Of a stretch of DNA of 44,295 nucleotides, positions 3,054 through 36,050 are shown one piece after another. Both the position numbers and the translations under genes were made by a program. The notes beneath the pieces are model-generated. The model was not told the origin of the DNA and did no database searches. It saw nothing but the letters and a program-made list of their open reading frames with translations. The DNA is from a virus (Duplodnaviria > Heunggongvirae > Uroviricota > Caudoviricetes): IMG/VR virus record IMGVR_UViG_2734482556_000013; one strand, 5' to 3'. Positions within the stretch are counted from its first letter, which is position 1; the number at the start of each line of letters is the position of its first letter.

Positions 3054-3602
3054 TCAGCGACCAATCACCACAACCTGACCACCGTCCCCTTCGTCTGCCG
3101 TGCTGATCTCCTGAGATACCACACGTGACCCCACGCGCATTTCACCATACAGAACAGGCATAACATTGCCCTGGGCAACCATGTTATCCAGTGAGGAGAA
3201 ATAGGTGTTCTGCTTACCGTTATCCGTTGTCTGTGTGCGGGGAGTTCTGGCTTTCGGTGCCAGCATCTGAGCCACACCGCCGAGCACCATACTGGCACCG
3301 AGAGAAAACAGAATGCCGGTCATACCACCGGCACCAATGGCAGCCCCCCATGCTGCAAGGGTGGCTCCGGCGGTAAAGAATGATCCGGCAATGGCGGCTG
3401 CTCCCAGGACAATCTGGAATACACCACCTGACTTGGCCCCGGCGACTCTGGGAACAATATGAATCACAGCGCCGTCAGGCAGAGCCTCATGTAACTGTGC
3501 CGTTAATCCGGACGTGCTAACATCCTGCCCGGCAATACGCACCTGATACCAGCCGTCGCTCAGCTTCTGACGAAACGCAGGGAGCTGTGTGGCCATCGCC
3601 CG
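3054..3602 (-). CDS. Tail assembly protein I-like, second divergent copy (N-terminus lost in gap)
   Basis: Translation ...TQLPAFRQKLSDGWYQVRIAG...GEMRVGSRVVSQEISTADEGDGGQVVVIGR matches gpI from about residue 45 to the end; frame is open up to the gap edge. Confidence 0.6.
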   Translation of the reverse strand, partial: RAMATQLPAFRQKLSDGWYQVRIAGQDVSTSGLTAQLHEALPDGAVIHIVPRVAGAKSGGVFQIVLGAAAIAGSFFTAGATLAAWGAAIGAGGMTGILFSLGASMVLGGVAQMLAPKARTPRTQTTDNGKQNTYFSSLDNMVAQGNVMPVLYGEMRVGSRVVSQEISTADEGDGGQVVVIGR

Positions 3603-3852
3603 NNNNNNNNNNNNNNNNNNNNNNNNNNNNNNNNNNNNNNNNNNNNNNNNNNNNNNNNNNNNNNNNNNNNNNNNNNNNNNNNNNNNNNNNNNNNNNNNNN
3701 NNNNNNNNNNNNNNNNNNNNNNNNNNNNNNNNNNNNNNNNNNNNNNNNNNNNNNNNNNNNNNNNNNNNNNNNNNNNNNNNNNNNNNNNNNNNNNNNNNNN
3801 NNNNNNNNNNNNNNNNNNNNNNNNNNNNNNNNNNNNNNNNNNNNNNNNNNNN
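3603..3852. other. Assembly gap (run of N) between two gpI-like sequences
   Basis: 250 consecutive n characters. Confidence 1.
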
Positions 3853-4438
3853 AAACCACACGTGACCCCACGCGCATTTCCCCGTACAGAACAGGCAGAA
3901 CATTACCCTGGGCAACCATGTTATCCAGTGACGAGAAATACGTGTTCTGTTTGCCGTTATCTGTACTGGCTGCCGTGGGCGTCCTGGCTTTCGGTGCCAG
4001 CATCTGCGCCACACCACCCAGGATCATACTGGCCCCTGCTGCATACATACCCGATACAGCCGCGGCCCCCAGCCAGCCCACAGGGTTCCACCATGCCACC
4101 GCAATCAGCGCCGCACCCAGCACCGCCTGAAACACACCGCCACTTTTGGCACCCGCCAGACGCGGAACGATGTGGATCACGGCACCATTTGCCAGCGGTT
4201 CATTAAGACGGGCAGATAATTCATTTTCGCCTGCATCACGCCCGGCAATGCGCACCTGATACCAGCCGTCGCTCAGTTTCTGACGAAATGCCGGGAGCTG
4301 TGTGGCCAGTGCCCGGATGGCTTCGGCCCCCGTTTTCACACGAAGGTCGATGCGGCGGCCAAATCGCTGCAAATCCCCGTAAAGGCAGATGCGTGCCATG
4401 CCCGGTGACGCCAGAGGGAGTGTGTGCGTCGCTGCCAT
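3853..4438 (-). CDS. I: Tail assembly protein I (C-terminus lost in gap)
   Basis: Starts MAATHTLPLASPGMARICLYGDLQRFGRRIDLRVKTGAEAIRALATQLPAFRQKLSDGWYQVRIAG..., lambda gpI-like; runs into the N-gap. Confidence 0.7.
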
Positions 4439-6121: not shown

Positions 6122-9100
6122 TTAACATTCCCCCATCACGTCGCATATTTAACAGATTGCCCTGCACCCGCTGATCAACCATCCCCATAAGTGCTTTTAT
6201 TGCCTGAGGGCCAATCTCTCCATTCTGGCCGTCATTTTGAATAGTGATTTGGTATACAGGGGCATAGGTAATATCTCCGCCTCCATTACCACTTTTACTA
6301 TTAATAGCTCTGACACCAAGAGAACCATCGGAAGTTCGTGTTAATGGCATAATGGCTTCCGGTCCAGCCTCACCAAAAACACCAGCCCCTTTTGCAAAAG
6401 CAAAAAATTGCGGGGAATCATAAATACCGTTCGAATACGTGCTCAATGACGGAGACTCATAAACACCGCCCTTTGCATTCGGAATAAATTTACTAATAGC
6501 ACTCCCGATAGTTCCTAAAATCCCCCCAGAAGAACTGTTACTAATGCTGTCGAAAATCCCAGTAATTGAAGCCTTTAATGCTATTCGACTAAGATCCGAA
6601 ATCACGGAAGTAGCGAAAGAACGAAAATTTGCCTTGCCTGTCGTGACAAAATCACCCAGCGCATCGGTCATCCCATCAAACATCTGAGTCGTGGTTGATT
6701 TTATCTGCTCACTGATATCCTTAGTGTCATCCAGCCAGTTATTGAATCCCTGGGAGGCACCACTAACCCAGTCTCCTGCCTGAATATCGAGCTGCTCGTT
6801 TTTCTGTCTGACAATTTCTTTTTCCCGTTCCAGAGCATCATTCAGAGCCTGCATTTTCTCTTGAAAAACATGATCTGACATTCCACGGGATTTATCTGCA
6901 TAGTCACGTTCAAGTTGCAGACGCTGATTGTTATATCCATGTTCAATCCGCAGTAATTCCTGCTGGCGTTGCTGATTTTTATCGCCAACCCCATAACCAG
7001 CAATCTGAATATCATACCCCTGCTGACGATTATCAATCGAAGCCTGCAATGAATCACGCCATGCTGTTATTTCGGCGGATTCCTTGATTAGCCTGTTATT
7101 TTTTTCAATCGCAACATTTTTCTCCATCAACGTGGTTATTTCTTCCCGGTGTAAGAGAAGCGATTTCTGATCCTGGGTTAATTTCGATGATGGTCGTGAC
7201 TCTAGGTCGGCAATCCGCTGACGCCACTTAACCAGTTCCTGTTCAGAGGAACTTAATTTAACGGTCAACTCAGCTTGTGAACTTAGTAACGCATTCTGTT
7301 GATTCAGATGATCAATCATTCGTTGGGCTGCATCATCAGAATAACCTTTCGCCTTTGGTTGCTTTGGATCTTTATAACGCTCATTTATTTGAGCGATAAG
7401 ATTATTATATTCTTCCTTTGAATACTGATTCTTTAGCTTTTCCAGTTTTGCAAGTTCACTAGCTCTCTGCTGCTCCCGGGTCTGATATTGTTTTGAAAAG
7501 GCATCTGCTCTCTGTCTGAGTTCAATTCCTTCCTGTTGTCGCTTGTTGTAATCGTTTATTGATGAATTTAGTACGTCCTGAGCAATTTTTTCTGCTTGAA
7601 GTACGCCCAATTGCTGCTTTAATCGTGCCAGCCTTTTATTTTGAGCTCCGCCATCTCCAATGCCACCTAACCCGAAAACTCCGGGTCGGGTATTTTTTTC
7701 TATTTCATCAATTTGACGGAGAACATCTGAGATTTTTTGATCAAGGGAGGCCTCACGGCCAATATCCAGCATGGAATCCCATGCCCATTTTGCGGAGTCT
7801 GCGACAGCTTTCCATGCAGTCTCAAGATAACCAAGATTTTCTTTAATCTGGTTGGTGCGCTGGATCATTGAGGATGAGTATTCTTCTGTCGCAATGCGGG
7901 CGGCCTCCTGCTGGTTCCCTTCATCCTGTAGCGCCTTAATCTGGTTATAAGTCGCAAGTGTCAGAAAATGGTACTGATCATTAAGTTTTGATATGGCACT
8001 GACAGGATCCTTTGCAATTTCATTGAAGTCATTAACCAGTTGTTCGGTTGATATTCCTGTTACTTCGCTCGTTTTTACTATCGCTGTCGTCACTTGCTCC
8101 AGCGAACTGCTCGCTACCTTTCCCGAACGCACAAGCTGATTTAATACTGCCGCCGCAGCACCAGTTGTCGAATCAGCCGCATTCCCGGCACGTTGAGCTA
8201 TATCGCCCAATTGCCCGCTGGTTGTCCCCAACTGATTTCCGGTAAGAATAAGAGATTTATTAAATTCGTCCTGCTCCTGAGAGCCTTTATAGTAAGCCAG
8301 TCCTAAGACCCCAACGGCTGCTGCGGCCAGGGTAAAAGGATTAATTAATCCCAGCACATAAGAACCTACACCTTTGATCGCCGGGCCAATCCCACCGAAC
8401 ATATCTTTTAGCTGGCCGCCCTGCTGCATTAACACCATAAATGGCGACTGACCAGTGGACAACCCAACAACAATATCCGTCATTTGTACAGGCAACATGC
8501 GCATAGCAAAAGCCGTTTGTTTTGCCGACATTCCGGTTTTGCTTAATTGTGATTGAGTAACCTCAAGCTCACTCCGCATAGCACGAAGTTTTCCAGAAAG
8601 CTCCTCATACATTTCAGGAGAAAGCATCCCCTTAGCTTTTGCTTCATTGAGCTGTTTCTGTTGTTCTACCAGACGATTAAAAGCAGTTCCGACAGGATCA
8701 AGTTGAGCAATCAGACGTTGCAAAGCAACAACCTGTTCATCATGCGCTTTTGCTGCTTCTCGCTCTGCCTGAGCCTCTCCGGTAAGCTCTCGCCGTGTTT
8801 CCTGTATTTTTCGGCTATAATTCTCAAACTGAGAACCATTTATTTTCCCGGATGCAAACGCAGCATTAAGTTCATCATGCTGTTGTTCAAGATTTCTTAG
8901 CGCCGCAGCCAGAGGGTCGATCTTGTCCAGCATTCTTTGAAAGGCCTGAGCCTGCGCTTCCTGCTGGGCGGCAGCAAGTTTTCCGGCCTTCTCGGCTTCT
9001 CTCTGCGCTTGCGCAACCCCGCTCAATTCCTCTGTGGTTTCATTAAGTTTACGGACAAGAAATTCATATTCTTCTTTATCAATAAGCCCTTTATCGAAAA

Positions 9101-22120: not shown

Positions 22121-23578
22121 TTAGGAGCGCCAAAAAAAACCTGAAAACAATATAATAACAGGATAAATTTCAAGGCGACCAAGAATCATAGCTATGCACA
22201 TTAAATATTTTGCAATGTCATTAAGCACTCCGAATGACGATGCAGTAGCCCCAAAACCTAATCCCATATTATTAATACATGCAGCCACTGTTGCAAATGA
22301 TGTAAGAAAATCATATCCCATACCATTTAACACCAGTATAAAAAACACCGTGAAGAGAGTATAAAGAAAAAAGAAACTCCATACAGACCTCATTACACGA
22401 TCTGTAACTATCTTCCCTCCTACATTTACACTCAACAACGCTCTGGGATGAGAAAGCTGATTTATCTCGTGTTTGCTTTGTTTGAAAAGTATAAGAAATC
22501 GAAGTGACTTAATTCCACCACAGGTTGAACCTATACATCCCCCAAAGAAACTTGACAACAGCAAAAACACTATCGTGTGCGTGGGCCAGTTTGCATAATC
22601 CTGCGTAGCTAAACCATTATCAGTGAGCATGGAGCTGGCAAGAAAAAACGAATGAATAAAACTTCCATGCAAGTCATACATACCTATATGCCAGACCTGG
22701 AAAGAGGTAACAATGATCACCCCTAAGGCTATTAACAGAAAGAAACGAAGTTCAATATCTCTGATTAAAGGTTTTATCGTTTTTCTGCTAATAACAATAT
22801 ACCAAAGAGTGAAGTTGAAAGCCGATAGCAGGGAAAAAGAACCAGCCACCAGCTCAACCAAATAGTTATTAAAATATCCGATACTCTCGCTATGAGTTGA
22901 GAAACCACCAAGCGAAACTGTGGAAATCCCGTGACAAATAGCATCAAACAAAGGCATTCCTGCAAGTCTATAACAGACAATACAAGCAATACCTAATAAA
23001 GAATAAGTTATCCACAGTGTCCGTGACGTATCGGCCAGGCGGGGAGTGAGTTTGTCATCCTTAAATGGCCCCGGCATTTCTGACTGATAAAGCTTTGCAC
23101 CACCAATACCCAATAATGGCAATACTGCAACCGCCAGAACAATAACTCCTAAACCACCTATAAAATTTAACTGTGACCGATAGTACAAATATGCCCGAGG
23201 TAATGAACTAACATCATCAATTACAGTTGCTCCTGTTGTTGTTATTCCAGAAACCCCTTCAAACAGAGCATCAATGAACGTTAAATTAAGTTCTGAGTCA
23301 ATCCATAAAGGGAATGCACTAATAACAGAAAACAAAATCCAAAACATTACAATTATAATAAACCCATCACGGGTACGTAATTGAATGCCAGATTTCTTAG
23401 TTGTATACCACGCTCCGCCACCAATGCAAAAAAATATAACGAAAGTTATAAAGAAAACGAACAGGCTTTTTTCTTTATAAAACAATGCTACAACCATTGG
23501 TGGCAACATTGAAAGACTATAGAGCCAAACCAGGAACCCACACATATGAGTAACAACTCTTACATGAGATGTATTCAT
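22121..23578 (-). CDS. trkG: TrkH-family potassium uptake protein TrkG
   Basis: Polytopic membrane protein starting MNTSHVRVVTHMCGFLVWLYSL... (ATG 23576-23578), matching K-12 Rac-encoded TrkG; visibly AT-rich gene. Confidence 0.9.
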   Translation of the reverse strand: MNTSHVRVVTHMCGFLVWLYSLSMLPPMVVALFYKEKSLFVFFITFVIFFCIGGGAWYTTKKSGIQLRTRDGFIIIVMFWILFSVISAFPLWIDSELNLTFIDALFEGVSGITTTGATVIDDVSSLPRAYLYYRSQLNFIGGLGVIVLAVAVLPLLGIGGAKLYQSEMPGPFKDDKLTPRLADTSRTLWITYSLLGIACIVCYRLAGMPLFDAICHGISTVSLGGFSTHSESIGYFNNYLVELVAGSFSLLSAFNFTLWYIVISRKTIKPLIRDIELRFFLLIALGVIIVTSFQVWHIGMYDLHGSFIHSFFLASSMLTDNGLATQDYANWPTHTIVFLLLSSFFGGCIGSTCGGIKSLRFLILFKQSKHEINQLSHPRALLSVNVGGKIVTDRVMRSVWSFFFLYTLFTVFFILVLNGMGYDFLTSFATVAACINNMGLGFGATASSFGVLNDIAKYLMCIAMILGRLEIYPVIILFSGFFWRS

Positions 23579-23715
23579 ATCTAAATATTCTTTCAATTAT
23601 AACCACCTTGCTGCAATATTATGATTATACTGTATAAAATTTAACTCCTCTTAGATCTTACTTCACTGTTCCTTATGAAACAATCATCAAAATGAATCAT
23701 ATTGTAGTTAAGATT

Positions 23716-25535: not shown

Positions 25536-25685
25536 TTCTTGCTCCTCAATCCATTAAAATCTCAGCAATAGTAGTTGTTACGTCCGCCACTGGCTCAGAG
25601 CTGACTATCCGCTAAATTTAGCTCAGTGCCGTAGCTGTGTCAGAACAAACCTAAGCCGAAACCGTTTATTACAAAACAATAAATA

Positions 25686-26114
25686 TCAGGGTTTAAAATC
25701 CAGCACCCCATTTTGAAATACTTTATATACTTCCGGCGAAGGGGGGGCAGGTATATCAGCATTCTTTATCGCATTCATCGCTTCACGACATAAATCGAGG
25801 TCTCCACTTTCTCTTTTAACCTCCAGTAGAAGGCCATTCGGGGCCATATGCATTCTCAGTGTACACTCTTTTCCTGAATACTTACTCGCATCCCCGAACT
25901 GTTTTTCGATGGCGCTCTTGATTTGATGGGCATACAGACGGATATCCTCACTAACATCAGAAGTACGTTCAGATGAACTCACATACTGTGTCTCTATTGC
26001 TTTATCGGAGTAATATGATGTACGGTCATGATAATTTGTCGATACAGCATCAGTGCACCCGATAATAATCCCACTAATAATCAACGTAAGAATTGATGCG
26101 CTACGAAAACCCAT
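25686..26114 (-). CDS. Lipoprotein with TolA C-terminal (domain III)-like domain, paralog 2
   Basis: ATG preceded by GAGG; lipobox IIGC; C-terminal YAHQIKSAIEKQFGDASKYSGKECTLRMHMAPNGLLLEVKRESGDLDLCREAMNAIKNADIPAPPSPEVYKVFQNGVLDFKP closely parallels the remembered C-terminus of E. coli TolA. Confidence 0.65.
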   Translation of the reverse strand: MGFRSASILTLIISGIIIGCTDAVSTNYHDRTSYYSDKAIETQYVSSSERTSDVSEDIRLYAHQIKSAIEKQFGDASKYSGKECTLRMHMAPNGLLLEVKRESGDLDLCREAMNAIKNADIPAPPSPEVYKVFQNGVLDFKP

Positions 26115-26702
26115 TTTTCCTCACATATGTCATATAGTAAAGGATTATATATACCGTTGTTTTGGACGCTCAAACAGCGAATCAGATCAAATAAAACGCA
26201 CATTTGTTAACATTTACACAAAGTCTGCGTGGGATATTCTGAAAGAATATCCATAATGTGGAGAGAATCTATTGAAGTGCATGGTGCCGGGTGCCTCCCG
26301 GTGAACAAAATGTTCGTGATACCTGTCGGCGACAGAAAAGGTTAATGGTATCACCCCACCGCACAGGGGGATTCACCATGCAGGAGTTTTCTTAGCAAAC
26401 TCACTGCGCGCCCGGCAACTCCCAACCACATAAAATGCGGAGTTTGTGGCATTTATGCATATAACTCGCAGGAATTATCTTAAAAAACTGATGTCGATCC
26501 GGATTAAAAAGAAGCAGGTCATCATCAGATGACTGGAAAAAAGGAAAACAAAAAATACTCATCATACAGTTTTGATTGCAGGGATGAGCCTGCTATGCAC
26601 AATATGCAGAATATAAGCAAGATAAAAATATGCAGGCATATTATTTCGGATCTTGTTATTAACACAACCTTTTTAATAATCATTTGGCATACAATAAACC
26701 AG

Positions 26703-26731
26703 CCCAAAAAGAACCGCCTAAACAGGCGGTT
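26703..26731 (-). terminator. Intrinsic terminator-like hairpin in the Q to late-gene intergenic region
   Basis: Minus strand: AACCGCC TGTTTA GGCGGTT followed by CTTTTTGGG. Confidence 0.45.
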
Positions 26732-27048
26732 GGTCAATACAAAGGATGCTTCGTCTTTATTATAGTAATCTGAGGCGTCGGGTGTCTTGTATCAGACAAC
26801 ATATTGTCCCGCTAAACAGCGAATTACAAACCACCCTGCAATGATCTCTCATCTCATTTTATATGAGTTGACGACATCAGGATAACGCATCATCAGCCCC
26901 TGCCAAGAAATATCAAAACTCCCGCCAGCAATGTGTTATCACAATATTGTAAAAAAAACACAGCACCGAAACTATAACTGGTCTCTGTTATAATTTGGAG
27001 CAGAAAGACCAGTTGCCCAACTAGCAGCATTCTCCCCTGCTTTCCTGA

Positions 27049-27080
27049 CGTAAAAAAACCGCATTAAGCGGTTTTTTTAC
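27049..27080. terminator. Bidirectional intrinsic terminator just downstream of Q
   Basis: AAAAAAACCGC ATTAA GCGGTTTTTTT: GC stem flanked by an A-run and a T-run, so it has a U-tract on either strand. Confidence 0.6.
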
Positions 27081-27158
27081 GATGTCCATGTCTGCAATCC
27101 GCCTCGCGATACAGCTTTGCGAAGCATAGCAAAATTGAAGCAGTTTATACGTAAGAAA

Positions 27159-27701
27159 TCAAGCCATTTTCTCAGCAAATGATTCACGCATGGGAATATA
27201 TAGGGCATACTCAGCAACAGCTAACCAATTAGCAATCCGTTTTTCGCATGTGCTAAAACACCACTCTGGGTGTGCATCATTTAGCAATTCAGCCATTTTG
27301 CGCTTAGTCATCCCCCGCCCTTCATAGCGTTGCCGGAGAATGCAAATCAATCCTGGATGCTCTGCCAGCACCTCACTTATGACTCGATCAATACATAACG
27401 CCTCTGCATCAGTACAATGCGCCAGCCAGCTCTTTTGCTTGCCGTTGATCATCTCTCGCAAAAACGCTTCCAGCTCAGCTTTCTCTATTCCCGCTTTTTT
27501 CATTCTGCGCAGGGCTTCATTAATGGCTGTTTTCGTCAGTTTTTTGGATGCCAACAACTGATTGAACATATTCCCTGACCTGCCACCGCCAATATACGAC
27601 CAGCGCCCCCACATACGTAGTTTTCCCTGAATCCAGACACTTTCCAGCGTGGTGAGGCGAAGGTGTTCTCCGCTTTTTCCTGTATTCGTTGGGTAAATCA
27701 T
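27159..27701 (-). CDS. Late-gene antitermination protein Q
   Basis: 180-aa protein at the end of the early-right operon immediately upstream of the late region; contains a Cys/His cluster (HCTDAEALCIDR...); family assignment from position and recollection. Confidence 0.7.
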   Translation of the reverse strand: MIYPTNTGKSGEHLRLTTLESVWIQGKLRMWGRWSYIGGGRSGNMFNQLLASKKLTKTAINEALRRMKKAGIEKAELEAFLREMINGKQKSWLAHCTDAEALCIDRVISEVLAEHPGLICILRQRYEGRGMTKRKMAELLNDAHPEWCFSTCEKRIANWLAVAEYALYIPMRESFAEKMA

Positions 27702-27988
27702 AAATGACCTTTCTTTCTCCAGATTTCTTGTGTGCGAAAAACCCCTTCAGCATGCATCAGGCGCAATTCTTCTTTGGTGTAATCGCTGGTTTTTACCCGC
27801 CCGTCGATTAGATCGTGGCATGAGCTACAGGCTATCGCCGCCTGCATATCATGTGGTTTTGTCGCTGTTCCGCACGTCCCCGCCAGCCTGTAATGCGCCA
27901 GCACAGAGGTTTCGGGATTGTGATTGCAGTAGCCAGGGATTCTGATCTGGCACATCTGGCCTTTAGCCGCTTTACGTAAATTCACCAT
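27698..27988 (-). CDS. YbcO-like nin-region protein (DUF1364, Cys-rich putative nuclease)
   Basis: MVNLRKAAKGQMCQIRIPGYCNHNPETSVLAHYRLAGTCGTATKPHDMQAAIACSSCHD... parallels remembered DLP12 YbcO. Confidence 0.7.
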   Translation of the reverse strand: MVNLRKAAKGQMCQIRIPGYCNHNPETSVLAHYRLAGTCGTATKPHDMQAAIACSSCHDLIDGRVKTSDYTKEELRLMHAEGVFRTQEIWRKKGHL

Positions 27989-28587
27989 TACGCAAACTCC
28001 AGTAGTTGTGCGGCCACATTTTCAACTTCCTCCTGAGAGGAGAATTTACGGAACAGAATCCAGTTCCACAGCACATTCAGTACAGATTTATAAACCTGCT
28101 GAAACTCGACTTCGTCCATATTCGCAAAAGCGATGGATTTTGCCCGACGCCCACGGCTACCGTCCGGATAAATATGCTCGGTGTAAAATCCGGCCTGAAT
28201 GGTTACCCACTCGCGGAAAGCCTCAAACGACTTTAGCAACGCCGTATCCCGGGTTCTACGAGTCGCAACGGTGTTAAGGTATTGCTCTGCGGCATCACTC
28301 AGGGCTGGCGTGTGTTCCCGACCAACTGATTCGCACAGGTAATCAACGAAACCAGACAGCAGTTCTCGTTCGCGAGGCGTGATCGCCCCACCGACCGGAG
28401 TCCAGTAATCGAATCCCAGTTGCAGGAGTTTGAAAAAACGCTTGTGGAATGCGTAGTTACGCACACGCTTAAAGTCTGCGTGTATCCACTCACCTATTTT
28501 GATTTGATGCAGAAAATCGCAACTCTCCGGCGTCGCCGGGAGAAGTAAACCAGAAGAGGTTTGTTTGACCAGTTGTATATGCGCCAT
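27988..28587 (-). CDS. Nin-region phage protein (DUF1367-like), function unknown
   Basis: 199-aa ORF with ATG at 28585-28587, translationally coupled to the ybcO-like gene. Confidence 0.6.
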   Translation of the reverse strand: MAHIQLVKQTSSGLLLPATPESCDFLHQIKIGEWIHADFKRVRNYAFHKRFFKLLQLGFDYWTPVGGAITPRERELLSGFVDYLCESVGREHTPALSDAAEQYLNTVATRRTRDTALLKSFEAFREWVTIQAGFYTEHIYPDGSRGRRAKSIAFANMDEVEFQQVYKSVLNVLWNWILFRKFSSQEEVENVAAQLLEFA

Positions 28588-28867
28588 TTCTCAATCTCTC
28601 GATGGCGCAGCGCAGCAGATGCCAGTTGTTCAGGCTGACGAATAAAGTATAAATAAACTGGCTATGGTGTAAAGCCCCACATAGCATGAACAAACACTAC
28701 ATATCAAATAGCTGGTACAAGGATAGAAATACGACACTTATTATTAAAAACGATTAGATAAATTACATTTTAATGTTATGCAAAAGTTCTTTTTTATCAT
28801 AACATTTCAATAAAAGCATTACAGATGCAATCATCCCGTCATCATCAATTATTTAAGGTGGTTAAAC

Positions 28868-28954
28868 ATGGAAAATAACAAGTTCGCACATCTCGCTCCT
28901 TTTTTATCCGTAATCCTTTTCGCTTGTTGTTTTATATGGGCATTATTTTTATAA
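28868..28954 (+). CDS. Candidate small hydrophobic peptide (28 aa)
   Basis: AAGGTGG Shine-Dalgarno 6 nt upstream of ATG 28868; translation MENNKFAHLAPFLSVILFACCFIWALFL; in AT-rich DNA, so chance ORF not excluded. Confidence 0.3.
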   Translation: MENNKFAHLAPFLSVILFACCFIWALFL

Positions 28955-29361
28955 AGTAGCCACATGATAAGTTGCTGGAATCATATTTCCCACTCAAGTC
29001 ATTAACATTTGATAAGATATATCTAAAAGGACGCCTTTACATTATTTATGCGTATATAATTTATTTATATACACAGTAAAGGTATCCTGGGAAAATATTT
29101 ATCGTTAAAAAATACATCATAAATAATTAAGCTGAAATTTCAGAACACAACTAATACACACAATAAGGTTCAGTAACAGTAATCTATGTGGACTACATCG
29201 AGATTTTTTGATTAAACTTTAATAACTTATTCCTAACACACAGAATGCATAAACTAAAAGTAAAACAAATAGTTATACGAAAAACAACCATATTTATTCT
29301 ATCTTCTCCTCTAATCAACATATCAATTATGTGTTTCATAACAGCTTGACATAACCCTCCA

Positions 29362-29386
29362 AAAGATGCATTTTTAATGCATGTTT
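29362..29386 (+). promoter_or_regulatory. Paired ATGCAT half-sites (NsrR-box-like) with an upstream TTGACA, preceding the yeaR-like gene
   Basis: AAGATGCATTTTTAATGCATGTTTT lies just before the Shine-Dalgarno; TTGACA at 29346-29351. Confidence 0.4.
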
Positions 29387-29400
29387 TGGAGGAGGTGGTT

Positions 29401-29739
29401 ATGACACACAAGAGAATTCCTAAAGATTGGGTAATCAAACGCTCAACTCCGTTCTTCACAAAAGAGAACGTACCTTCAGCGTTATTAACACATCATAATA
29501 CAGCAGCAGGTGTTTTTGGGCAGTTGTGCGTAATGGAAGGCACTGTAACATATTATGGTTTTACTGATGAGAATGCTACTGAACCGGAGATAAAAGTAGT
29601 CATTAATGCTGGCGCTTTTGCAACAAGCCCACCACAATACTGGCACCGTGTTGAACTAAGCGATGATGCTCAGTTTAATATTAACTTTTGGGTCGCTCCA
29701 GACTTTTCGGGCGAAAAAGTCTATAGCACCAAAAAATAG
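29401..29739 (+). CDS. YeaR-like protein (DUF1971 family)
   Basis: GGAGGAGGTGG Shine-Dalgarno before ATG 29401; translation MTHKRIPKDWVIKRSTPFFTKENVPSALL...YWHRVELSDDAQFNINFWVAPD resembles E. coli YeaR. Confidence 0.75.
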   Translation: MTHKRIPKDWVIKRSTPFFTKENVPSALLTHHNTAAGVFGQLCVMEGTVTYYGFTDENATEPEIKVVINAGAFATSPPQYWHRVELSDDAQFNINFWVAPDFSGEKVYSTKK

Positions 29740-29768
29740 ATGATCATATTAAAAATGCTTTAACAGTC

Positions 29769-29806
29769 AGACCCGGCAGGGCTATCCCCGACGGGTCTCA
29801 TTTTTG
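29769..29806 (+). terminator. Intrinsic terminator of the yeaR-like gene
   Basis: AGACCCG ... CGGGTCT stem followed by CATTTTTG, about 30 nt after the stop codon. Confidence 0.55.
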
Positions 29807-30359
29807 TAAATATATTGGTTCTACATTGACAGGAGACTTCAACCATAAGAAGTAATCTGAATACTTGAGCAATAAATTTACTTAAGATTAATGAGCGCAC
29901 CTTGCCGGACAAAGATAAACCAAGGTAACACCTTTTTTCTAGCCAGTATGTAATCAATCAGAAAGCCGCTCCATAAGAACAACAGCAAGACAATAAATTG
30001 CCATTACAGCCGCAATAGCCAGCGCACATTTGAGAACCAGCACGACAACCCCCTGTATTAGACGCACACCAGTCCTGATAAATATGAGGCTGTCTCGTCA
30101 GTGATTCAATACAACTATTGGGTATAGTTTCTGTGATTTTATTCTGTAGAAATGGAACACAACAACCAGTCACCACCAGCACTTCCTTAAATGCTCTAAG
30201 TCAGAAACAAGCCAACATTTTAGTCCGCTTTGAGCGATCTGCAGACATTGCTAGCAGCCTTCTGTGTGAATTCTCAGGGAGCAGGTCGGCATAGCATCAC
30301 GTTGAGGCTCTTACCCTACTTGTTCACACCAACCCTAACTCCACAGACTGATTCATAAA

Positions 30360-31361
30360 TTAGTAATCTGCGTGTTTCGCACTTTTCAGAAATGCTTTCA
30401 TATTTTCATTAGGTCGCTCAATTTCGAAGTTACTTCCATATAACTCTTGTAATTTTGGCCATAACTTACTTAATAACCCTCTCCTGCGATAAAATGGATG
30501 TATCCAAACGGTAGATAGGTACGGAGAATTTGCATTTGAATTGTTTATTGTGACCAGCCCAACTAAACATTGTCGATAACCACTATTATCCATTGATTGT
30601 ATTTCTTCGACGAATGGATACGCGATTACATCAGTCCAACCATGATCGGTTGTATCCCATTGCATTCCGTCATGACATTCCTTCGACTGATAGCGGCGTA
30701 AAGCTACACACGCGAGCTTTTGCCAATCTGGAGAATTAATTGTGATCTCTTCATCGTATGACGCGCCTATTGGAGCGGGTATTGGTCTGATTAATCCAGC
30801 ATGGCATTCATCATAGAACTTCATGTTTCCCTCAGAAACGTTGTGTACGTTGGGTTGCTCCATGTGTGCGCCATTCAAAAATAGCTCTGATAGTAGTGTA
30901 TCTACACTGTAATCTTTATTGATTATTGTCGGCTTAGAGTTTTTCTTATTAAGGCCGCGAGTAACGATTTTTTGATCAATGTTAACAACATGGAATAATC
31001 CGTCGGGGAGGCTAGCGAACCACGATGGGGCATCGGACCAGAATAGCATGCCTTTTGTACTTCTTAAGAGTTTAATTAAGTTAATACAAGCTTCTTCACT
31101 AGTCTTGCCGTTGATGCGAAGTATGTTAGGACTAAAGTAATATTCATCCATATCAGGGAATGCAGCTTCGCAAAACTCCTGTACATAATTTAGCACCTGG
31201 ATTCTACAGAGATCATCATAGCTGGTAATAACTAAGGGGGTATCTTCATTACTATTATGATTATCAATAATGCAATCTATAGCGAGACTTACTGCTTTGC
31301 GTATCACTTCAGTTGAATCTAACGACTCTAAAAATTTTGTCTTTCGTGTGCGAATATCCAT
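30360..31361 (-). CDS. Hypothetical protein with C-terminal GNAT-like acetyltransferase motif (cassette gene B)
   Basis: 333 aa; C-terminal ...YRQCLVGLVTINNSNANSPYLSTVWIHPFYRRRGLLSKLWPKL resembles GNAT motif A; ATG lies 16 nt after the stop of gene A; AT-rich. Confidence 0.7.
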   Translation of the reverse strand: MDIRTRKTKFLESLDSTEVIRKAVSLAIDCIIDNHNSNEDTPLVITSYDDLCRIQVLNYVQEFCEAAFPDMDEYYFSPNILRINGKTSEEACINLIKLLRSTKGMLFWSDAPSWFASLPDGLFHVVNIDQKIVTRGLNKKNSKPTIINKDYSVDTLLSELFLNGAHMEQPNVHNVSEGNMKFYDECHAGLIRPIPAPIGASYDEEITINSPDWQKLACVALRRYQSKECHDGMQWDTTDHGWTDVIAYPFVEEIQSMDNSGYRQCLVGLVTINNSNANSPYLSTVWIHPFYRRRGLLSKLWPKLQELYGSNFEIERPNENMKAFLKSAKHADY

Positions 31362-31376
31362 GTATGACCTGCGCTA

Positions 31377-32399
31377 TTAAAATTCATGAATGAACGGTTT
31401 GTCATCTGGTTGCAAAATGGTGGTTTTATTCGTTGCTACATTTAAACTGTTGTAGAGCATAATTGCCAGGTTCGATGCATTTTCAATCAGCGTTTCAAGA
31501 TCCTGGTCTGTAATCACTACGAGGTTCCCTTCTTTATCCTTTCCACCACGATGCACTAAGTGATTTCGATTGAGGGTTGCCAATTCAATAGCTTCTATCG
31601 GACAGTCTTTTTGTACTTTTATATCGAATGTAGCTTCATAGCGGTCGATTACCTTTTTAGTGCTATGCCAGCTTGCACTGATCAAGTGTTCCTTGATTGA
31701 CCTGATTAGCTCTCCCCTAATTTTCTCGATGGGTTCACCCTTGAAAGGCAACGCAGCAATATCTTTGCTTACTTTAAATTCAGTCTTACCTTTTTCTATA
31801 CAATTGGCTATGTAGACATCATCTTTCTCTATAGAATTAATGAATAGCTCAACATAAAGCGTTTCCAAAGCTGTAATAACATTCGTGTAGAGCAAACTAA
31901 GCAAGTGGTTTTTTTGCTGTTGTTCAGTTTTATCTTTTGCAAGTTTTTTTATTTTATCGATATTATCAATGAATTTTAAATACGGATTACCGGAAGACGT
32001 TACAGCGTCGTAGATATCATCATCGTACCAATCATCTATATTATTTGAGTTTCCAGACCAGTCAAAACATTGTGTTTGTAATTCATCTACTAATTCCTCA
32101 ATATACTCAGATTTAACATATTGACCGAAGATGGATTGTAGTTCTTCGCTCGCATCATACGGCCCGCCATATATGTAAGCATAGCCACCTTCTCTACTTT
32201 CATACGGACAAGCATTTGCCGGATCTTCAAAGTTTTCAAAGAACCAGTTTTTCATTACTTCGAGTTGATCTTTTTTGCTTATGTATTTTAAAGATTTTAG
32301 TGGAACTTTCTTTCCATTAACCTCGAAAACAATTTTCACGATGTAACGCTCCCTTGTATCAATTGCGCAACTATTATACCACAGCGAAATACAGGGCAT
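31377..32399 (-). CDS. Hypothetical protein with C-terminal Rx4H (HEPN-like) motif (cassette gene A)
   Basis: Preferred start ATG 32397-32399 (MPCISLWYNS...) preceded by TAAGGAGG; 340 aa; motif RNHLVH at 31551-31568; AT-rich; ORF track extends to 32468. Confidence 0.7.
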   Translation of the reverse strand: MPCISLWYNSCAIDTRERYIVKIVFEVNGKKVPLKSLKYISKKDQLEVMKNWFFENFEDPANACPYESREGGYAYIYGGPYDASEELQSIFGQYVKSEYIEELVDELQTQCFDWSGNSNNIDDWYDDDIYDAVTSSGNPYLKFIDNIDKIKKLAKDKTEQQQKNHLLSLLYTNVITALETLYVELFINSIEKDDVYIANCIEKGKTEFKVSKDIAALPFKGEPIEKIRGELIRSIKEHLISASWHSTKKVIDRYEATFDIKVQKDCPIEAIELATLNRNHLVHRGGKDKEGNLVVITDQDLETLIENASNLAIMLYNSLNVATNKTTILQPDDKPFIHEF

Positions 32400-32537
32400 A
32401 ACCTGCCTCCTTAAACTAACATACCATGAGCCAGCAATGTCCGCTATTGGCACAAAGCGGACAACCACGCTAGCTCTCCCCTGTGCCAGAAAAATGTCAA
32501 TTTACATATGAACTAATGCTCTTTGATCTAGTAACGT

Positions 32538-32954
32538 CTATAAATACCGAAGATTTCCTTGATAAAATGCCAGTACACGTTTCATAACTTCACTCTTCCG
32601 GCACTCGCGACAGATTATGTTCTGACGCCTGTCATAGCGGCGTATTTCTCCGTCTGGTAATGACCAGATAAGGTCAGGATCAACCACAACCGTTTTTTTC
32701 ACCTTTGCCCTGGATAGTTTTTTGCGGGCGTTTTTCCAATCCTTACGAGCCTGTTCAGACGGGAATAACCCATAGCCAGAGTTGTATACATCGCCACTGG
32801 CAACCAACTCTCTGGCAAGAATGCTCATCAGATATCTTGTCGCACCTGTCTTGGCCTCCAGTTGCCTTAACGTCTCGCGCCCACTCTGGCGTACCAACTC
32901 AACAACCTGCTCCTTAATTTTTTCACGCTCTTCCTGTGTAAAAACTTTTGCCAT
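32538..32954 (-). CDS. Hypothetical nin-region protein
   Basis: ATG at 32952-32954 preceded by GGAGG; translation MAKVFTQEEREKIKEQVVELVRQSGRETLRQ... with a small Cys cluster (ICRECRKS). Confidence 0.55.
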   Translation of the reverse strand: MAKVFTQEEREKIKEQVVELVRQSGRETLRQLEAKTGATRYLMSILARELVASGDVYNSGYGLFPSEQARKDWKNARKKLSRAKVKKTVVVDPDLIWSLPDGEIRRYDRRQNIICRECRKSEVMKRVLAFYQGNLRYL

Positions 32955-32969
32955 AAGCGCCTCCGGCAA

Positions 32970-33731
32970 TCACTTTTCCGACACAATACGACTGGAGGAA
33001 TCGACAATCTGTCGGACAATATCCCGGTGCTTGTTCAGCTCCCGCAGCGCGGCGCAGACTCGCTCCCACTTCTGGACATGATTTTTCGCCCGACGCAGTT
33101 CGCGGTTTGCCATATGCAGCGATGGTAAAACTAGGTCATCCGCTTGCGTTTCAGTAAACGATGGCAGCGACTGCACAATGTCCGCCACAGTTTCTGTTTT
33201 AATATCTTCCTGTGTTGCCGCTTCCTGTACTGGTAACGCAACACCGGCTGGCTGAGGAAAGGCTTTACCATCAGTTTCCGCTACCGATGCAGCTTTCGGC
33301 TCTGCTGGTAAATTATCGCCCGGCATGCAGTAACGAAATTTACTGTTCTGGTTTACGCGAATCAGGCGTCCTTTGCTGATTGCCATTGCCAGCGTTGAAG
33401 CAACTTTGCGGGATGTTGTACCGAACAGCGTAGCCAGTTCATCCGCCGTTTGTGGTCCGCGTTGTTCAATCGTCGCGGTTAAATCGCACTCTGAGATTTT
33501 CACTACAGTTGCCGTGGTGGTTTCTTCCGGCAGTTCTGCCTGCATTGGCTGTTCCTGCTGAACGTTGTTATCAGCCACACGCCAGGTGTACGCGCTTTTA
33601 TCAACGAAACCAGCTTTTTTCAGTTCCCATAGTTCGTTCAGCACTTCTTCACGACTGATATCAAGTCGCGCAGCAAGTTCTATGGATGTGGCTTTTCCCA
33701 TTGCTTTCAGTGCGTCAAAAACAGTCTCCAT
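32970..33731 (-). CDS. Hypothetical phage protein with N-terminal winged-helix-like region (possibly YdaW-like)
   Basis: Preferred start [43 protein letters not shown] (ATG 33729-33731) preceded by GGGAGGAAA; immediately downstream of the DnaC-like gene. Confidence 0.55.
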
Positions 33732-35799: not shown

Positions 35800-36050
35800 G
35801 AATCAACTCCCATCAGCTTTTTCGTAGTAGTTTTATTTCTGCCAATAGTTAAAATTACATCAGCAGAAAATAATCCGTTTGATGCATGAGCGATTTTTTC
35901 AGCGTAATTTGTTTCGCCGGTATATTCTGTGCGAGGCAATTTTCCGTTATCCATCCATTTGTAGATTGCTCTTTGGCTGACACCACAAACGTCGGCCACA
36001 ACAGAAACGCGAACAGTTTTGATTACATCTTCAAGTGTTTTCTGGTTCAT
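35796..36050 (-). CDS. ydaS: Cro-like HTH regulator YdaS
   Basis: Preferred start MNQKTLEDVIKTVRVSVVADVCGVSQRAIYKWMDNGKLP (ATG 36048-36050) preceded by GAGGGTG; divergent from racR; ORF track extends to 36122. Confidence 0.65.
   Translation of the reverse strand: MNQKTLEDVIKTVRVSVVADVCGVSQRAIYKWMDNGKLPRTEYTGETNYAEKIAHASNGLFSADVILTIGRNKTTTKKLMGVDS

Follow-up and report, generated by a model that had tools for sequence, protein, structure and literature searches.

A variable cargo slot of Rac- and Qin-type prophages probably explains an AT-rich stretch with HEPN- and GNAT-type genes in a Rac-family prophage

The window analysed in this work is a stretch of 44,295 nucleotides (IMG/VR record IMGVR_UViG_2734482556_000013, Caudoviricetes), which represents a full-length Rac-family prophage with its early-right operon on the minus strand. 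The nin-equivalent region of this operon contains an AT-rich stretch (28590-32530), flanked by the genes for DUF977 (32538-32969) and DUF1367 (27988-28587). It probably represents a cargo slot of variable content, in its occupied state, that belongs to the nin-like region of Rac- and Qin-type prophages. In the present case, the slot would hold a HEPN effector of the abortive infection (Abi) type (gene A), its GNAT partner (gene B), a moron with an NsrR-type operator, and small peptides. The slot is bracketed by 24-nt inverted-repeat hairpins, and elsewhere it holds the validated systems IetAS and PD-T7-3 as well as candidate systems. Prophage defence hotspots as such are known biology; what is new here is the detail of the cargo and of the repeat architecture.

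The slot is bounded by the DUF977 and DUF1367 genes or, in Qin types, by hokD in place of DUF1367, and more than 12 sampled strains and phages have these flanks in common around different cargo. The occupants include IetA/IetS in strain c1-17, an AIPR protein in 2020S05-013-31, a DUF4209 protein in 3347558, a SMEK-domain protein with a methyltransferase in ECO2947, a KilA-N protein with a Hok peptide in AR_0067, and a 269-aa hypothetical protein in EC50. In the Rac prophage of strain FORC_082 (locus L003, positions 6957-8177), a 406-aa protein corresponding to PD-T7-3 and labelled as hypothetical in RefSeq directly adjoins the same DUF1971 module that is present in the window. Strain 13KWH46 carries an MFS transporter, a gamma-glutamylcyclotransferase and a LysR protein, phage Evi an acetyltransferase with a regulator, and phage Tritos a 444-aa protein, while the equivalent place in K-12 Qin is taken by flxA, adjoining relBE-hokD. 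The "HEPN domain-containing protein" found in the slot of strain E47 was considered as a solo homologue of gene A and set aside, being unrelated in sequence.

A PADLOC scan of ten alternative cargo proteins, from eight other strains and phages, gave matches for six of them: IetS (E-value 9e-302), IetA (9e-143), PD-T7-3 (2.5e-159), AbiU (the AIPR protein), PDC-S39 and PDC-S15. IetAS, which PGAP names an anti-phage system, we take to be the ietAS system of Gao et al. 2020. PD-T7-3 was protective in the experiments of Vassallo et al. 2022 (PMC9519451). Since IetAS, PD-T7-3, the AbiU-like AIPR protein and the candidates PDC-S15 and PDC-S39 occupy it, the slot can be described as a defence-enriched hotspot, and it combines the features expected of a prophage defence or moron hotspot, namely flanks that are conserved, a content that varies, and other occupants that include known defence systems. 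It thereby resembles the hotspots of P2 and P4 (Rousset et al. 2022) and of P2 (Vassallo et al. 2022), where conserved phage flanks also enclose hypervariable low-GC cargo, with known defence systems in part of the occupants and hypothetical genes in the rest. Unlike those, the present slot belongs to Rac- and Qin-type lambdoid prophages, stretches from DUF977 to DUF1367 or hokD, is delimited by 24-nt inverted-repeat hairpins, and takes up non-defence morons too.

The two boundary repeats share the core GTCCGC-N12-GCGGAC. The upstream copy (32439-32462) is exact and forms part of a 46-nt two-tier hairpin at 32430-32475 (-21 kcal/mol, z -3.3), and the downstream copy (30223-30246), with one mismatch to the core, lies in a 46-nt two-tier hairpin at 30210-30255 (-15.2 kcal/mol, z -2.6). 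Together, these two segments make up the longest inverted repeat of the region (46 nt, 72% identity), bracketing genes A and B. The repeat pair was kept in every cargo variant examined, phage Evi among them as well as strain A20, whose site is nearly empty, and homology among the variants breaks at the repeats, ending at 32439-32462 and resuming at 30223-30246. On the backbone side of the slot, a conserved leader on the minus strand (32463-32537) runs from the DUF977 stop codon to the upstream repeat and is common to prophages with unrelated cargo (UTI89, E47, and the AIPR and SMEK variants), with homology ending right past the repeat. A sigma-54 or sigma-70 promoter in this leader was considered and dismissed, as direct reading of the sequence showed unsuitable spacing. 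The ends of the A+B unit, 30223 and 32462, are identical in three different flanks, which are the Rac/Qin slot, an island of Serratia, and a plasmid-borne Qin fragment, where the unit is inverted relative to the backbone when compared with the UTI89-type arrangement. The flanks of the plasmid fragment are found in K-12 Qin, with the same repeat pair placed, in the opposite orientation, around ydfV'-flxA (locus L141, 5982-6005 and 6973-6996). No target-site duplication was seen.

Whether the repeats serve as recombination sites, act as short homology arms in a RecET/Red-type exchange, or are functional hairpins that only happen to coincide with the breakpoints could not be decided. In having discrete cargo, structured and imperfectly palindromic ends, identical ends in unrelated flanks and no target-site duplication, the repeat-bounded units are similar to integron cassettes and to palindrome-associated transposable elements (PATEs) of the IS200/IS605 type. 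They differ from both in that no integrase or HUH transposase is associated with them, and the repeats are not attC- or IS608-like. A more far-reaching proposal would be that the slot is a dedicated cassette-exchange site, with repeat-to-repeat blocks moved by a hairpin- or site-specific mechanism new for lambdoid phages, and that A+B is a new HEPN-acetyltransferase anti-phage system; we regard this combination as rather unlikely, and homologous exchange through the conserved flanks is an adequate alternative in most cases. The window has two further, weaker matches to the core, one at 25582-25605 with a single mismatch and one at 35991-36014 with two, and the four matches in total are not in excess of chance, since 2 of 100 shuffled sequences reach four. 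By coordinates alone, the copy at 25582-25605 is placed just below a TolA-like moron open reading frame (ORF; 25686-26114), and it may be either another cargo boundary or a chance match.

In regard to base composition, the initial annotation of this DNA, made from the sequence by eye, had described a sharp drop over 28590-32530, which our calculations bear out. The GC content of this stretch is 37.7%, compared with 49.1% for the left flank (three genes, 27159-28587) and 48.3% for the 3.9 kb on the right, and the lowest values (30-35%) are reached at 28588-29376. A sliding-window analysis identified the stretch as the lowest-GC 3.9 kb in the window, with only 0.4% of equal-length segments equally low, every one of them overlapping it. 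GC content at third codon positions is about 0.35 for the three genes inside, versus 0.47-0.61 for the flanking phage genes. Placement in the early-right operon of a Rac-family prophage, also claimed at that time, agrees with the family markers intR, recET, kilR, sieB, ydaSTUV and trkG, as well as with the prophage integrated at ttcA in E. coli JP538, which is 99.3% identical to the window from position 3853 to its end. The annotation of the JP538 prophage comprises intR, xisR, ralR, recT, recE, racC, kilR, sieB, ydaT/U/V, DUF1627, DUF977, DUF1367, DUF1364 (YbcO-like), a Q-like protein with DUF1133, TolA-like morons, trkG, lysis genes, and all head and tail genes. All genes listed in the initial annotation, which are a small hydrophobic peptide ORF, a yeaR-like gene on the opposite strand with its own ribosome site and terminator, and a HEPN-like/GNAT-like operon, do exist, and its observation is therefore confirmed. 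Its proposal of horizontally acquired accessory content is likewise supported by the foreign composition and codon bias, and by a distribution that is not one of conserved core.

This distribution was assessed among 5426 complete E. coli genomes. The whole arrangement (query 28000-33000, which adds about 0.5 kb of flank on each side) was found in 13 of them, the HEPN+GNAT pair (30360-32340) in 209, with three plasmid copies among them, the DUF1971 segment (28600-29940) in 450 at a coverage of at least 80%, and a 299-bp linker (29939-30237) in 1718. Several avian pathogenic (APEC) isolates carry the HEPN+GNAT unit, as does UTI89, a uropathogenic strain. Of the 209 matching genomes, 208 have intact ORFs with an identity of at least 99%, and 205 contain 80% or more of the unit. 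The frequencies of 13, 209 and 450 rule out the possibility, raised in the initial annotation as one that would speak against acquired cargo, that the same content is conserved core in all Rac-family prophages. The content is instead a mosaic of independently circulating modules, and the idea of one 3.9-kb island has to be replaced by at least three separately distributed modules together with the widespread linker. Pairwise comparisons placed the breakpoints at 28955/28956, 29939 and 30223-30237, while a fourth, at the replication-proximal edge, is found either at 32462 (in the repeat 32439-32462) or at about 32549-32560, depending on the relative. Thus, 28590-32530 holds as the AT-rich span, but the left edge of the variable DNA is 28956 and not 28590, as 28588-28955 is an AT-rich, diverged and backbone-associated piece common to other Rac-like prophages. 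The alignment with K-12 Rac that had been suggested for defining the insertion boundaries was uninformative, and K-12 Rac is unusable as a boundary reference because everything from ydaW to rzpR is gone from it.

Gene A (31377-32339, minus strand) encodes a 320-aa protein with a probable HEPN/RES-NTD1-type N-terminal domain and a C-terminal HEPN domain holding the canonical Rx4H motif, R258-N-H-L-V-H263. Its family comprises 122 clusters that range from Enterobacterales to Acidobacteriota and Chloroflexota, and the 51 homologues compared, with identities as low as 26%, have R258, H263 and R264 without exception. An N-terminal block, WFxxNFEDP...PY...EGGY.YI.GGPY, is conserved in the family as well. 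The protein has the alpha-helical HEPN fold, and its best structural neighbours (5yep, 7ae2 and 8xdj) are toxins of the HEPN-MNT type. No sequence relative among solved structures was found when PDB sequences were searched with a profile. In Pfam, the protein of the window has no match to PF18735, and many homologues at 30-70% identity carry PF18870 (HEPN_RES_NTD1) and/or PF18735 in their precomputed annotation. NCBIfam offered no useful naming match for either A or B. Translation starts at a GTG (32339) that is preceded by AAGGGAG and conserved in Serratia and Aeromonas, and longer readings of 363 and 340 codons were rejected: Aeromonas has no upstream ATG, that of Serratia is not in frame, and the region concerned is the putative promoter. 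Direct reading of the sequence there suggests an extended -10 promoter for A and B on the minus strand (TGgTATAAT, 32373-32381), kept as TGnTACAAT in Serratia and Aeromonas.

The fusion of HEPN/RES-NTD1 to a HEPN domain was predicted computationally by Anantharaman et al. 2013 (PMC3710099) and termed Abi-like. Gene A has the same domain order as their MAE_18760/MAE_28990 group, with an N-terminal domain of about 100 aa followed by HEPN with the conserved Rx4H motif; that group is known as a computational prediction alone. We compared 47 loci, taken at species level, that have a full-length A homologue and sufficient sequence downstream of it; 45 of them are devoid of gene B, and these 45 have no conserved partner of A, with no neighbour common to more than two loci. 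An E. coli homologue with 71% identity also stands solo, within an integrative element. Gene A therefore represents a stand-alone unit at the level of the family, and we conclude that A does not need B. This self-sufficiency, with no conserved partner gene, is shared with HepS, a solo HEPN abortive-infection protein at the equivalent accessory position of the Salmonella prophage Gifsy-1 (PMC13043305), and with Tha of S. aureus prophages. Sequence relationship of gene A to HepS or Tha was not detectable, nor was specific structural homology to HepS, and gene A differs from both in its additional HEPN/RES-NTD1-type domain, its length of 320 aa, and the predicted co-transcription with a GNAT-fold protein in this lineage.

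Gene B (30360-31361, minus strand) starts 15 nt after the stop codon of A and encodes 333 aa, of which the N-terminal 170 or so are specific to the family and the C-terminal domain has the GNAT fold. Among 1.84 billion representative proteins, the N-terminal 170 residues were found in the B family alone, and a Foldseek search against the PDB found the GNAT part only. The family is small, with 66 clusters that are gammaproteobacterial throughout. The A-B pair with the same 15-nt spacing is present in Serratia grimesii (98% and 95% identity), where McrBC-like genes lie next to it, and in Aeromonas (87% and 78% identity), with TIR and SIR2-STALD genes as neighbours. Solo B genes were found in satellite or integrative elements, where they follow primase-like genes, as well as in an integrative and conjugative element and in Citrobacter. 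In the Citrobacter locus (L130, 5392-5844), the gene that follows a solo B homologue (86% identity) encodes a protein of 150 aa, in which an RNNLFH (Rx4H-like) motif is present. Pfam gave no match for that protein, HEPN included, and it may represent a second, independent link of this GNAT family to HEPN-like proteins. A literature search found nothing on the A and B protein accessions or on a HEPN+GNAT defence system.

Could A and B form a toxin-antitoxin or addiction pair, in which B neutralises a HEPN RNase toxin by covalent modification, as MNT proteins do by AMPylation of HEPN toxins, and which would serve prophage stabilisation and not phage sensing? Such a pair would fit the tight operon with its 15-nt gap, retained from E. 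coli to Aeromonas despite the divergence, the structural neighbours of A, which are mostly toxins of HEPN-MNT systems, and the Citrobacter arrangement of a solo B followed by the RNNLFH protein. However, 45 of the 47 A loci have neither B nor another conserved neighbour, B is found at loci without A, the Citrobacter protein has no Pfam HEPN match, and no antitoxin-type DNA-binding domain is present, so that we consider this explanation improbable. An obligate two-gene system is ruled out for the family at large by the same 45 loci, with the pair being conserved in one sublineage. Similarity to HEPN-MNT systems extends to the two-gene operon with a modifying-enzyme partner, but the partner here has a GNAT fold instead of a nucleotidyltransferase one, the order is toxin-first, and the obligatory adjacency of HEPN and nucleotidyltransferase genes is not found, most loci of A having no B beside it. 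Neither does B correspond to the GNAT-RHH toxin-antitoxin systems of the TacT/AtaT type, where a GNAT toxin of about 170 aa is adjacent to an RHH antitoxin; B has 333 aa with a unique N-terminal domain, and no small DNA-binding gene is adjacent to it.

Alternatively, A and/or B could serve the phage itself. In lytic growth or superinfection, they would then counter host defences or help to take over the host, for instance through acetylation of a host or defence protein or through breakdown of host RNA, and would be expressed by early-right read-through. Both genes are in sense orientation within the early-right operon, with the replication genes on one side and Q on the other, which would suit such a role, GNAT enzymes often modify proteins or small molecules, and B homologues lie just downstream of primase-like genes in satellite and integrative elements. 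We nevertheless find this quite improbable, given that the A+B unit has a conserved (predicted) promoter of its own, is also present outside phages, in chromosomal contexts resembling defence islands and on plasmids, runs antisense to the phage operon on the plasmid Qin fragment, and shares the slot with occupants that are defence systems.

For the occupied cargo slot that we favour, the following course can be proposed. The main cargo of the window would be the 2.24-kb A+B unit, transcribed from its own extended -10 promoter. Protein A would be a self-contained HEPN ribonuclease, held inactive by the conserved N-terminal HEPN/RES-NTD1 domain until a phage cue is received; the activated protein would then cut RNA and abort the infection, by analogy with the solo prophage HEPN proteins HepS and Tha. 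Protein B, co-transcribed 15 nt downstream, would be an acetyl-CoA-dependent protein of the acetyltransferase fold, which may modulate A or act as an independent second effector. The DUF1971 gene would be a separate moron, repressed by NsrR and induced by nitric oxide, as is the case for chromosomal yeaR, and two small hydrophobic peptides would be further products expressed in the lysogen.

The DUF1971 module (28956-29938) is also carried by the isolated phages vB_EcoS-666R9, -673R7 and -613R10. It begins with a non-coding, very AT-rich spacer (28956-29345, about 30% GC, without strand), followed by a gene on the plus strand (29401-29739, 112 aa) that is antisense to the phage operon and preceded by a GGAGG ribosome site. 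The protein is of the YeaR or TehB N-terminal type and matches PF09313 over its full length (91.9 bits against a cut-off of 23.1, E 2.6e-26), with a partial match to TehB in NCBIfam. A hairpin followed by a U-run (29769-29806, plus strand; -19.4 kcal/mol, z -2.05), located 3' of the gene, resembles an intrinsic terminator. Between a TTGACA hexamer (29346-29351) and the ribosome site lies an 11-1-11 palindrome, AAGATGCATTTTTAATGCATGTT (29363-29385, plus strand), of the kind expected for NsrR, which is an 11-1-11 inverted repeat near AAGATGCATTT-N-AAATGCATCTT in a promoter. It has two mismatches to the NsrR consensus AAGATGCATTTNAAATGCATCTT, where 0.00 such sites are expected by chance, and agrees at 20 of 23 positions with the ytfE site (PMC5320621, Table 4). 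Its core, GCATTT-N-AATGCAT, is retained in diverged variants of the module. The published list of CFT073 NsrR sites also contains yeaR and tehA (PMC5320621), and TehB, the operon partner of tehA, carries a DUF1971 domain. The module thus resembles chromosomal yeaR-yoaG and tehAB in combining a DUF1971 domain with an 11-1-11 NsrR-type palindrome just upstream, but differs from them in being phage-borne, in having no yoaG partner, and in a regulation that is predicted from sequence.

Two small hydrophobic ORFs accompany these genes. The first (28868-28954, plus strand, 28 codons, MENNKFAHLAPFLSVILFACCFIWALFL), which corresponds to the small peptide of the initial annotation, is antisense to the early-right operon and has a strong Shine-Dalgarno ribosome site, TAAGGTGG. 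Its frame, length, start, stop and ribosome site are kept in relatives of only about 76% identity, while the DNA upstream has indels, and the similarity to other Rac-like prophages extends no further than its stop codon. We regard it as a candidate for a small membrane protein or a type I toxin. The second (29954-30043, minus strand, 29 codons, VLVLKCALAIAAVMAIYCLAVVLMERLSD), with a GTG start and an AGGGGG ribosome site, is located within the 299-bp linker (29939-30237, minus strand). In Rac- and Qin-type prophages, this linker marks where the variable slot ends downstream; in the latter, it lies between the variable cargo and hokD. It has no RefSeq annotation. In the 29-codon frame, 11 synonymous and 10 non-synonymous, mostly conservative, substitutions were counted, versus 2 and 18 in each of the other frames, the counts being phylogenetically non-independent. 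In some GenBank records, the linker ORF appears as a putative membrane protein (29-42 aa); it is absent from RefSeq annotations throughout. A Cys-rich ORF of 74 codons (29958-30182) was rejected, as the substitution pattern favours the 29-codon frame and one variant has a frameshifting indel. Rfam and NCBIfam, inspected in regard to type I toxin-like peptides, gave no match for either small ORF, and in a scan of 26000-33000 no Rfam family was found within the island.

The emphasis of the initial annotation was on H-NS silencing in the lysogen, and it could be argued that the stretch is inert baggage, horizontally acquired AT-rich DNA that is kept silent by H-NS and has no current function. H-NS prefers very AT-rich DNA, such as that of 28588-29376, and the patchy distribution among genomes would also be compatible with this. 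We find it very hard to reconcile with the almost invariably intact ORFs of the HEPN+GNAT unit, catalytic residues that are invariant across phyla, the conservation of the predicted promoter, operator, ribosome sites and terminator, the coding-type substitution pattern of the small ORFs, and the presence of modules in isolated, viable phages. The extended -10 upstream of the HEPN gene and the NsrR-type operator at the DUF1971 gene suggest dedicated expression signals instead.

Several results weigh against our interpretation of the stretch as an occupied cargo slot with a defence gene as its main content. Gene A reaches 22.2 bits (E 1.9e-4) against PF18870, which is below the cut-off of 27.4, and gene B 19.9 bits against PF00583, with a cut-off of 20.7. 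Compared with the canonical acetyl-CoA loop R/Q-x-x-G-x-G/A, that of B (H288-P-F-Y-R292-R-R-G-L-L) is only loosely canonical, R292 being invariant and the glycine positions not. In PADLOC 2.0, gene A had only noise-level matches (E 0.009 or worse), B and the DUF1971 protein matched no model, and PHROGs lists genes A and B as unknown. A simple consensus scan did not call the extended -10 at 32373-32381, which was read by eye. Some occupants of the slot are not defence genes, namely the MFS transporter, gamma-glutamylcyclotransferase and LysR group, flxA of K-12 Qin, and the DUF1971 gene itself. Finally, binding of NsrR at 29363-29385 is proposed from the letters of the DNA alone, and the same palindrome as RNA would sequester the ribosome site (-26.1 kcal/mol, z -5.0) and could act as an RNA hairpin instead.

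Further observations concern the remainder of the prophage. Additional low-GC accessory stretches, mapped to JP538 coordinates, were found at 22121-23596 (trkG, 37-39% GC) and at 25686-27000 (TolA-like genes downstream of Q, about 38-42% GC), and the prophage therefore has several separate cargo sites. The only Rfam family that reached its gathering score in the scanned region was the small RNA STnc100 (26225-26411, minus strand; 86.6 bits versus a gathering score of 47), located in the low-GC stretch between the Q-like and TolA-like genes. Runs of N are present at 859-1162 (304 bases), 3603-3852 (250) and 24539 (1), and spuriously low GC values in the bins 501-1500 and 3501-4000 are due to the first two. 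At the second run, two partly duplicated gpI-like tail-assembly frames abut (3054-3596 and 3560-4438), and in the J region the sequence of the window departs from JP538.

Altogether, the comparisons define an accessory slot with exact, repeat-marked limits in prophages of the Rac and Qin types, which most E. coli have. Because two validated defence systems occupy this slot, its many hypothetical occupants, A+B among them, are good candidates for new immunity genes. The A+B unit brings together a HEPN/RES-NTD1 family predicted in 2013 and a GNAT-fold partner from a very small family with a unique N-terminal domain. The two putative small membrane-peptide genes that escaped annotation, one of them present in a third of E. 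coli genomes, represent annotation gaps. An NsrR-type operator on a phage-borne DUF1971 gene would, if it functions as the sequence suggests, link a prophage moron to the nitric-oxide response of the host.

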